A stretch of 4,246 bases of DNA from a virus (Duplodnaviria; Heunggongvirae; Uroviricota; Caudoviricetes). Location of the stretch: positions 1-4,246 of IMG/VR virus record IMGVR_UViG_2778261504_000015. One strand, 5' to 3'. Below the pieces are notes generated by a model that saw only the letters and a program-made list of their open reading frames with translations, was not told the DNA's origin and searched no databases. Positions 1,745-1,941 of this stretch are shown here, piece by piece. Positions within the stretch are counted from its first letter, which is position 1, and the number at the start of each line of letters is the position of its first letter. Both the position numbers and the translations under genes were made by a program.

Positions 1745-1777
1745 GAAAAAATCCCGCAGTGACCGAAGGCTGCGGGA
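1745..1777 (-). terminator. Putative intrinsic terminator for minus-strand transcription (hairpin followed by T-run on the minus strand)
   Basis: Perfect 8-bp inverted repeat TCCCGCAG (1752-1759) / CTGCGGGA (1770-1777) with a 10-nt loop. On the + strand it is preceded by AAAAAA (1746-1751), which on the minus strand is a T-run right after the stem. No T-run follows it on the + strand. Confidence 0.35.
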
Positions 1778-1784
1778 ACAGAAA

Positions 1785-1880
1785 ATGAAGATTAACCACA
1801 GGGAGTTTTGTTTTTATTGGCCCGAAAAAACTGTAACGCCCGGGAATGATATCTGCCACGGGGGCGTACAGAAAATGTGA
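1785..1880 (+). CDS. Hypothetical 31-aa small ORF inside the intergenic segment (MKINHREFCFYWPEKTVTPGNDICHGGVQKM); very low confidence
   Basis: ATG 1785 to TGA 1878-1880, with a weak GGGAA a few nt upstream. It is below the ORF track size cutoff, has no recognisable motif and is not hydrophobic. It lies between the two hairpins and upstream of the + strand terminator. Confidence 0.12.
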   Translation: MKINHREFCFYWPEKTVTPGNDICHGGVQKM

Positions 1881-1910
1881 AGAAATTCAGAAATTTTATT
1901 CCGTCATGAC

Positions 1911-1941
1911 ACAGGCACCCTCCGGGGTGCCTGTCGTTTTT
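1911..1941 (+). terminator. Rho-independent (intrinsic) terminator, + strand
   Basis: Perfect 10-bp inverted repeat ACAGGCACCC (1911-1920) / GGGTGCCTGT (1925-1934) around a 4-nt loop TCCG, followed by CG then TTTTT (1937-1941). Read directly from the sequence; stability was not computed. Confidence 0.65.

Follow-up and report, generated by a model that had tools for sequence, protein, structure and literature searches.

A terminator hairpin downstream of tail gene I in a lambdoid prophage very probably forms the 3′ end of an sRNA gene of the PasB/EcOnc22-24 family

The window, meaning here the whole 4,246-nt stretch of viral DNA analysed, came from a lambdoid tail operon encoded on the + strand and contained the end of L followed by K, I, and J. 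Pfam assigned JAB and NlpC/P60 domains to K, Lambda_tail_I to I, and GpJ domains to J, which started with GTG at nt 1986. The stop codon of I, TAA, was located at nt 1738–1740, and the open reading frames together with the Pfam assignments for I, J, and K delimited a 245-bp non-coding insert, or moron, reaching from the I stop to the J GTG (nt 1741–1985). This insert comprised an sRNA module on the I side and a conserved module on the J side.

Past the I stop codon, an A6 run on the + strand (nt 1746–1751) was followed by an inverted repeat at nt 1752–1777, the stem of which began 12 nt after the stop. T1752 and CCCGCAG (nt 1753–1759) paired with CTGCGGG (nt 1770–1776) and A1777, giving 8 pairs, of which 6 were G-C, around a loop of 10 nt, TGACCGAAGG (nt 1760–1769). 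On the minus strand, the stem arms were UCCCGCAG and CUGCGGGA, and UUUUUUCGCUUUU came directly after the hairpin, with UUUUUU at offset 0; on the + strand the hairpin was followed by AACAGAAAAUG and hence had no U-run. The initial annotation had reported, in + strand coordinates, an 8-bp GC-rich stem with a U-run on the minus strand only, which was correct by sequence. A G+C-rich hairpin with an immediate U-run is what defines an intrinsic terminator, and the 8-bp stem plus U6 also agreed with the definition used for calling Pas sRNAs, i.e., a 3′ stem-loop with a U-tract of at least 4 nt. Transcription presumably terminates in the U6 tract that adjoins the hairpin (nt 1746–1751, minus strand; followed by CGCUUUU), and Hfq presumably contacts the same tract with its proximal face.

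Structure prediction, which had been proposed as a check, bore out the minus-strand hairpin: a 56-mer containing it folded at -14.4 kcal/mol (z = -3.1), and 1 of 200 shuffled sequences folded equally well. In the minimum-free-energy fold of this strand, two extra C-G pairs formed within the loop, leaving a 3-nt loop and a 3-nt bulge. The + strand RNA of the same hairpin folded at -18.6 kcal/mol (z = -4.8). The pattern scanner for terminators admitted loops of 3–8 nt, versus a nominal loop of 10 nt here and of 10–16 nt across alleles; because the loop exceeded the 8-nt limit, the main stem went unreported and the scanner returned only a smaller overlapping hairpin at nt 1757–1743 of the minus strand.

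At the other end of the insert, a + strand terminator with a 10-bp stem followed by a T-run was located at nt 1911–1941. It had been noted in the initial annotation and was confirmed by the scanner (nt 1911–1934, then CGTTTTT). In an alignment of 14 unique alleles, 98.6% of the cells in its stem were paired, with one compensatory change from C-G to U-A in 6 of the 14 and two wobble changes. The two terminators had been described as a convergent pair, but they actually face outward, back to back; with the minus-strand terminator at the left edge and the + strand one at the right, both would end transcripts begun between them. The most conserved part of the insert was the stretch of about 75 nt leading into the + strand terminator (GAAAATGTGAAGA...TTATTCCGTCATGA, from about nt 1864). 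Directly before the J ribosome-binding site, the window contained two copies of a heptamer, CAGACAT/TCAGACA (nt 1955–1969); one viral locus (L043) contained four, which lengthened its insert to 260 bp.

Viral loci, 80 in number, were gathered with the N-terminal 200 residues of J as the sole query. The insert was present in all 77 in which both flanking genes were located, with lengths of 234–260, 338–343, or 851 bp, while I-J junctions of the lambda type, in which J was about 77% and I about 34% identical, measured about 71 bp and had no hairpin. Among bacterial chromosomes, the 301 nt around the insert were 100% identical to prophages of EHEC O26:H11, O157:H7, and O111:H8 and were found in 849 of 5426 complete E. 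coli genomes, at a median of 5 places per genome; the same region occurred in Stx1- and Stx2-converting phages with 72–100% identity. Among the E. coli matches listed, no annotated feature lay in the gap between I and J. One strain with exactly the window allele is O26:H11 11368 (NC_013361, around nt 2178236–2178480). The 95-nt sRNA region alone (nt 1746–1840) had matches in 1146 of the 5426 genomes, which included about 440 carrying the window type (identity of at least 95%, as many as 9 places per genome) and 653 in which only other alleles, at 60–80% identity and usually in single copy, were present. A scan of species-representative genomes yielded mostly lambda-like sequence in unrelated assemblies or lambda-type prophages without the insert, together with a few near-identical loci that had the hairpin. 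Matches to lambda or Stx-phage tails in Streptomyces, Bacillota, and Bradyrhizobium assemblies (L089, L092, L093, L095–L108, L124, and others), often on short contigs of low coverage, are, like those in other unrelated organisms, most likely contamination.

The two longer classes of insert differed in cargo. In the 851-bp class (L007, nt 350–1200; also L023 and L048), a Cu/Zn superoxide dismutase gene (Sod_Cu, E 3.9e-32) was encoded on the minus strand exactly at the site occupied in other alleles by the PasB promoter, equivalent to about nt 1835–1850 of the window; the PasB body and terminator were retained downstream of the hairpin belonging to sodC itself. In this class, the sRNA may derive from the 3′ end of sodC or may not be expressed. 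In the 338–343-bp class (L013, L006, L054, and others), the PasB module was kept and the J-proximal module was swapped for unrelated sequence containing a different hairpin, AAACCCCGGTATC...GATACCGGGGTTTCTCTTT. Since this third class had exchanged one half, the insert is modular and its halves recombine.

Conservation of the hairpin was assessed in the I-proximal 150 nt of the I-J intergenic region from 35 unique alleles. The seven core pairs, CCCGCAG/CUGCGGG, were intact in 34 of them, the closing U-A pair was present in 23, and a T-run of 6–8 nt was found in all 35, whereas the loop occurred as 10 distinct sequences of 10–16 nt. RNAalifold gave the hairpin helix as the sole consensus structure of the alignment. 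As the core pairs and the T-run were kept to this extent in loci chosen by J alone, the hairpin is beyond chance. The palindrome was thus conserved, which the initial annotation had named as a point to check; the compensatory changes it had also asked for were absent from the stem in these 35 alleles, and that test was inapplicable because the stem is essentially invariant. For the same reason, the support for the structure consists of invariant arms around a free loop rather than of covariation. The sole allele with a broken pair (L010, nt 961–1115) had CCCTCAG opposite CTGCGGG, a G-to-T change in the 5′ arm, and may be a decaying copy.

A counterpart with experimental support was found in enteropathogenic E. 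coli. PasB of EPEC O127:H6 E2348/69 is an 83-nt sRNA encoded on the minus strand at nt 1466343–1466261 of NC_011601 (Pearl Mizrahi et al. 2021, PMC8550237, Table S6), located between E2348C_1436 and E2348C_1437 and oriented opposite to both (PMC8550237). The annotation of this locus identified these two genes as I and J, respectively. PasB was verified by Northern blot with the probe AATCCCGCAGTGATCGCGGAGCT (PMC8550237); it is Hfq-dependent, has 37 RIL-seq interactions, and possesses a U-tract of 7. When the two loci were aligned, the 5′ end of PasB fell on nt 1824 of the window and its annotated 3′ end, 1466261, which is the end of the U7 tract, fell on nt 1745/1746; the first 13 nt of the probe were identical to nt 1750–1762. 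Over the 83 nt, the window allele was about 75% identical to PasB, with a longest exact match of 17 nt. A covariance model built from 26 alleles, all window-type sequences being excluded, had one strong full-length match in the window, at nt 1843–1738 of the minus strand (59 bits, E 8.3e-11). The position was likewise that of the family, i.e., between I and J of a lambdoid prophage and antisense to them, with the same neighbours in EPEC and in EHEC Sakai. A permissive Rfam search of the whole window gave only chance-level matches (E 0.4 and 0.95), both outside nt 1741–1985; the same search recovered AgvB, AsxR, and STnc100 in Sakai control loci, and an independent curated match was lacking because Rfam has no model for the PasB/EcOnc22-24 family.

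From the locus alignment, the probe identity, and the covariance-model match, it is concluded with high confidence that the hairpin, with its U-run, serves as Rho-independent terminator to a minus-strand sRNA gene of the family known as PasB in EPEC and EcOnc22-24 in EHEC. The structure, position, PasB homology, and conservation of the window allele all come from its own sequence and its alignments. The hairpin is therefore not an isolated insulator but part of a minus-strand sRNA gene of about 80–95 nt, extending from about nt 1839 or 1824 to nt 1746, for which the stem and U-tail are probably the 3′ module, i.e., the Hfq-binding 3′ end. Two proposals of the initial annotation are to be read in this light. 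That a minus-strand intrinsic terminator stops a transcript born in the insert on its way to I, and does not terminate I itself, was supported. The alternative it offered, a stabilising stem at the 3′ end of an antisense RNA, came near the truth, but missed that the RNA would be a discrete sRNA with a promoter of its own, belonging to the already described, trans-acting and Hfq-dependent PasB/EcOnc22-24 family.

The window allele and PasB share the I-J slot, the antisense orientation, a similar length, an identical terminator stem (CCCGCAG/CUGCGGG) with its U-tract, the blocks (U/G)AUCUUCAU and AACUCC, and the aligned position of the -10 hexamer, which is putative in the window; they differ in the loop (CCUUCGGUCA versus CUCCGCGAUCA) and in the 5′ third, and the -35 element of the window allele is weaker. 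The sRNA gene as delimited by alignment with EPEC PasB and the Sakai Sp15 allele, and by the covariance model, occupies nt 1746–1839 of the minus strand. Its predicted primary transcript is about 94 nt, or about 79 nt if the 5′ end corresponds to nt 1824, the promoter-predicted start (about nt 1839) and the aligned EPEC-annotated 5′ end being about 15 nt apart. Folding indicated that the body is largely without significant structure. Upstream of the stem, the best-conserved single-stranded parts were two blocks. One, UUAAUCUUC (nt 1787–1795, minus strand), lay about 9 nt upstream of the terminator stem; within it ATCTT was invariant and the flanks nearly so, while the surrounding bases varied among the 35 alleles. 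This block is a candidate seed, and a seed just upstream of the terminator has also been predicted for PasB (Zhu, Shabalina and Storz 2026 preprint, doi 10.64898/2026.05.13.724894). The other, AACUCC (nt 1802–1807, minus strand), was mostly conserved in the allele alignments and resembles an anti-Shine-Dalgarno sequence; it may likewise have a function in the sRNA.

A putative -10 hexamer, TATCAT, was observed at nt 1846–1851 of the minus strand, aligned with TATAAT of EPEC. At the aligned position of the EPEC allele the scanner detected a sigma-70 promoter, TTCACA-16-TATAAT, with 11 of 12 matches; it ends 22 nt upstream of the annotated PasB 5′ end, predicting a primary transcript of about 97 nt. 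The -35 position in the window (about nt 1868–1874, TTCTGT or TTTCTG) was poor, with 2 of 6 matches, and the promoter scanner called no promoter anywhere in the window. Because of this weak -35 element, the expression of the window allele and its transcription start site, as well as the activity of its promoter, are given here as predictions. For EPEC, RNA-seq (DESeq2 baseMean) gave 482–1082 for pasB versus 4.8 for I and 15 for J, and deletion of hfq lowered pasB by log2 -6.8 and -2.4 in two growth conditions. With pasB abundant while the tail operon was silent, the EPEC RNA must have a promoter of its own, as is typical of a moron.

A second set of homologues was found in EHEC O157:H7 Sakai. 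EcOnc22 (Sp15), EcOnc23 (Sp14), and EcOnc24 (Sp11) were reported as homologous Hfq-CRAC peaks (Tree et al. 2014, PMC4104026, Table S2), measuring about 85 nt by Northern blot and being destabilised in an hfq deletion (PMC4104026). Their printed coordinates, when taken on NC_002695.2, land close to the start of J. The table is displaced, however: AsxR and AgvB1, located via Rfam, lay 135–146 nt above their Table S2 coordinates in NC_002695.2, and EcOnc06 (minus strand, about 177 nt) coincided with a minus-strand copy of STnc100 only after the same shift. The displacement from the current RefSeq record was seen at 1.27, 1.94, and 3.49 Mb (L086, L087, and L088). After the shift, the EcOnc22 peak covered ...AACUCCAUAACGUUAAUCUUCAUCGUUCUCUCCCGCAGCUCCGCUAAC..., i.e., the body of a PasB-like RNA adjoining the I stop codon in Sp15, together with the 5′ half of its terminator; the geometry was the same in Sp11 and Sp14. 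EcOnc22, EcOnc23, and EcOnc24 thus appear to occupy the PasB slot and, with PasB, to be alleles of one family, an equivalence that depends on the offset, inferred to be about 140 nt, between the two Sakai record versions. The link is not stated in the cited PasB and EcOnc publications. Without correction, the EcOnc22 peak would fall on the reverse complement of the + strand terminator; a second antisense RNA near J was considered on this account and ruled out by the calibration with AsxR, AgvB1, and EcOnc06. EcOnc54 (Sp6), considered as a further copy, was located outside any I-J junction. EcOnc22-24, which measure about 85 nt and crosslink to Hfq, are what the window allele is predicted to be, RNAs read against the tail genes between I and J of an Stx-type lambdoid prophage. 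The window has their terminator stem and an almost identical right half of the insert; in the loop, body, and promoter region it differs from the three Sakai intergenic regions, which are identical to one another.

Several other explanations were weighed. The window allele might be a terminator without a working sRNA, blocking stray antisense transcription before I, whether it comes out of the insert or came from former cargo, with the PasB-like body a silent relic. The weak -35 element and the absence of a scanner call point in this direction, as does the 851-bp class: there the PasB promoter has given way to an antisense sodC, with the same hairpin downstream of it, so that the terminator can serve other cargo. 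However, the -10 hexamer of the window keeps the critical A2 and T6 at the aligned site, the window-type body has been kept at 95% identity or more in the roughly 440 complete E. coli genomes, the blocks UUAAUCUUC and AACUCC are intact, and the Sakai allele, with an equally poor -35, was nevertheless detected by CRAC and Northern blot; this explanation was judged quite unlikely. It also appeared unlikely that the late + strand mRNA uses the stem-loop just after I for stabilisation of a 3′ end or for processing, or that the sRNA pairs in cis with the I-J transcript and so tunes the tail genes. Although the + strand hairpin is the more stable one and the sRNA is, by its encoding, perfectly complementary to the late transcript over nt 1746–1839, the hairpin has no U-run on that strand, about 150 nt separate the end of the sRNA from the ribosome-binding site of J downstream of it, EPEC PasB has its 37 partners in trans and is made when I and J are silent, and phages of the lambda type build tails without the insert. 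Such a role is compatible with the sRNA terminator and does not replace it.

The palindrome had further been suggested as a protein-binding site, and a perfect, highly conserved inverted repeat of 7–8 bp is what a dimeric protein might recognise. Its half-sites are, however, spaced 10 to 16 bp apart among alleles, which a fixed dimer would not tolerate; the invariant T-run is on one strand only, and this is exactly where the 3′ end of the homologous RNA maps, making a DNA site very improbable. Equally improbable was a small protein encoded on the + strand (ATG at nt 1785, MKINHREF..., 31 aa; ORF nt 1785–1880) with the hairpin in its 5′ leader. Its start, ATGAAGATTAAC, is common to the EPEC and Sp15 alleles, but the ATG is missing from several alleles, in which the minus strand has CTTCGT or CTTTGT and the + strand accordingly ACG or ACA, and when translated the downstream frames and lengths differ fully among alleles (22, 31, and 39 aa); a seed of the sRNA explains the conserved block better. 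This ORF was rejected, neither its ATG nor its reading frame being conserved.

Taken as the terminator of a PasB-family sRNA, the hairpin suggests the following course of events. Transcription would start about halfway along the insert, at a sigma-70 promoter with its -10 hexamer at nt 1851–1846, and polymerase would travel about 80–95 nt toward I before halting at the U-tract (nt 1751–1746), 6 nt before the I stop. The terminator stem and U-tail would then guard the 3′ end and offer Hfq a binding site, and the unstructured A/U-rich body, with UUAAUCUUC and AACUCC, would pair with mRNAs in trans. Experiments on other alleles have established the size of the RNA, its dependence on Hfq, and its partners in trans, and by analogy the window allele may share them. 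As the tail genes are silent in the lysogen, the sRNA would represent a lysogen-expressed cargo gene, or moron; keeping an antisense transcript out of I would be a side effect of its terminator.

The arrangement resembles AgvB and AsxR (Tree et al. 2014; Rfam RF02702 and RF02703), which are also prophage-borne, Hfq-binding, terminator-ended, lysogen-expressed cargo at a fixed site, with alleles having a conserved 3′ module and a variable 5′ part. They differ in sequence and in location, occupying a late-promoter moron site downstream of PR′ rather than the tail operon, and they are described as anti-sRNAs, whereas PasB is not known to act as a sponge or anti-sRNA. Phage morons, in the account of Juhala et al. 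2000 cited in PMC4104026, are autonomous promoter-gene-terminator inserts between late genes. Judged by that account, the present insert is similar in being short, placed between adjacent structural genes, absent from lambda, equipped with a terminator and a putative promoter of its own, and probably active in lysogens; sodC takes up the I-J slot in some prophages. It differs in that the cargo is a non-coding RNA directed against the operon and that the insert is flanked by two outward-facing terminators.

A wider interpretation, tentative and rather doubtful at present, is that the insert is a back-to-back RNA moron of two genes, the PasB-family sRNA and a second RNA of about 60–80 nt on the + strand, and, as a separate point, that diverged PasB alleles differ in their targets. 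The second RNA would span about nt 1864–1941 (+ strand), end at the terminator at nt 1911–1941, and may start from an overlapping divergent promoter; for such an RNA in the right-hand module there was no Rfam match and no entry among the EPEC RIL-seq rows listed. The PasB alleles, with a common terminator and core blocks and with different bodies, may have different targets. If this is true, diverged alleles, with up to 9 matches per EHEC genome, would widen the regulatory repertoire of multi-lysogens without being counted in the PasB survey, which covered Escherichia genomes with a word size of 28 (doi 10.64898/2026.05.13.724894).

The element described here is an ordinary and largely known one, a prophage sRNA family that is already known being represented in the window by a diverged allele without annotation, and the result leaves the understanding of how such elements work unchanged. 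One practical consequence is that EcOnc RNAs mapped uncorrected onto NC_002695.2 will be misplaced. A word size of 28 exceeds the longest exact match of 17 nt between the window allele and PasB, so that this allele was probably not counted as PasB; diverged alleles of its kind, common and present in multiple copies in O157, O26, and O111 strains, were probably missed in general by such a census based on near-exact matches. With the hairpin assigned in this way, an odd backwards terminator within a tail operon is accounted for: it would close a regulatory RNA made in the lysogen, one of the PasB/EcOnc22-24 family, which has been tied experimentally to the Hfq networks of EPEC and EHEC.
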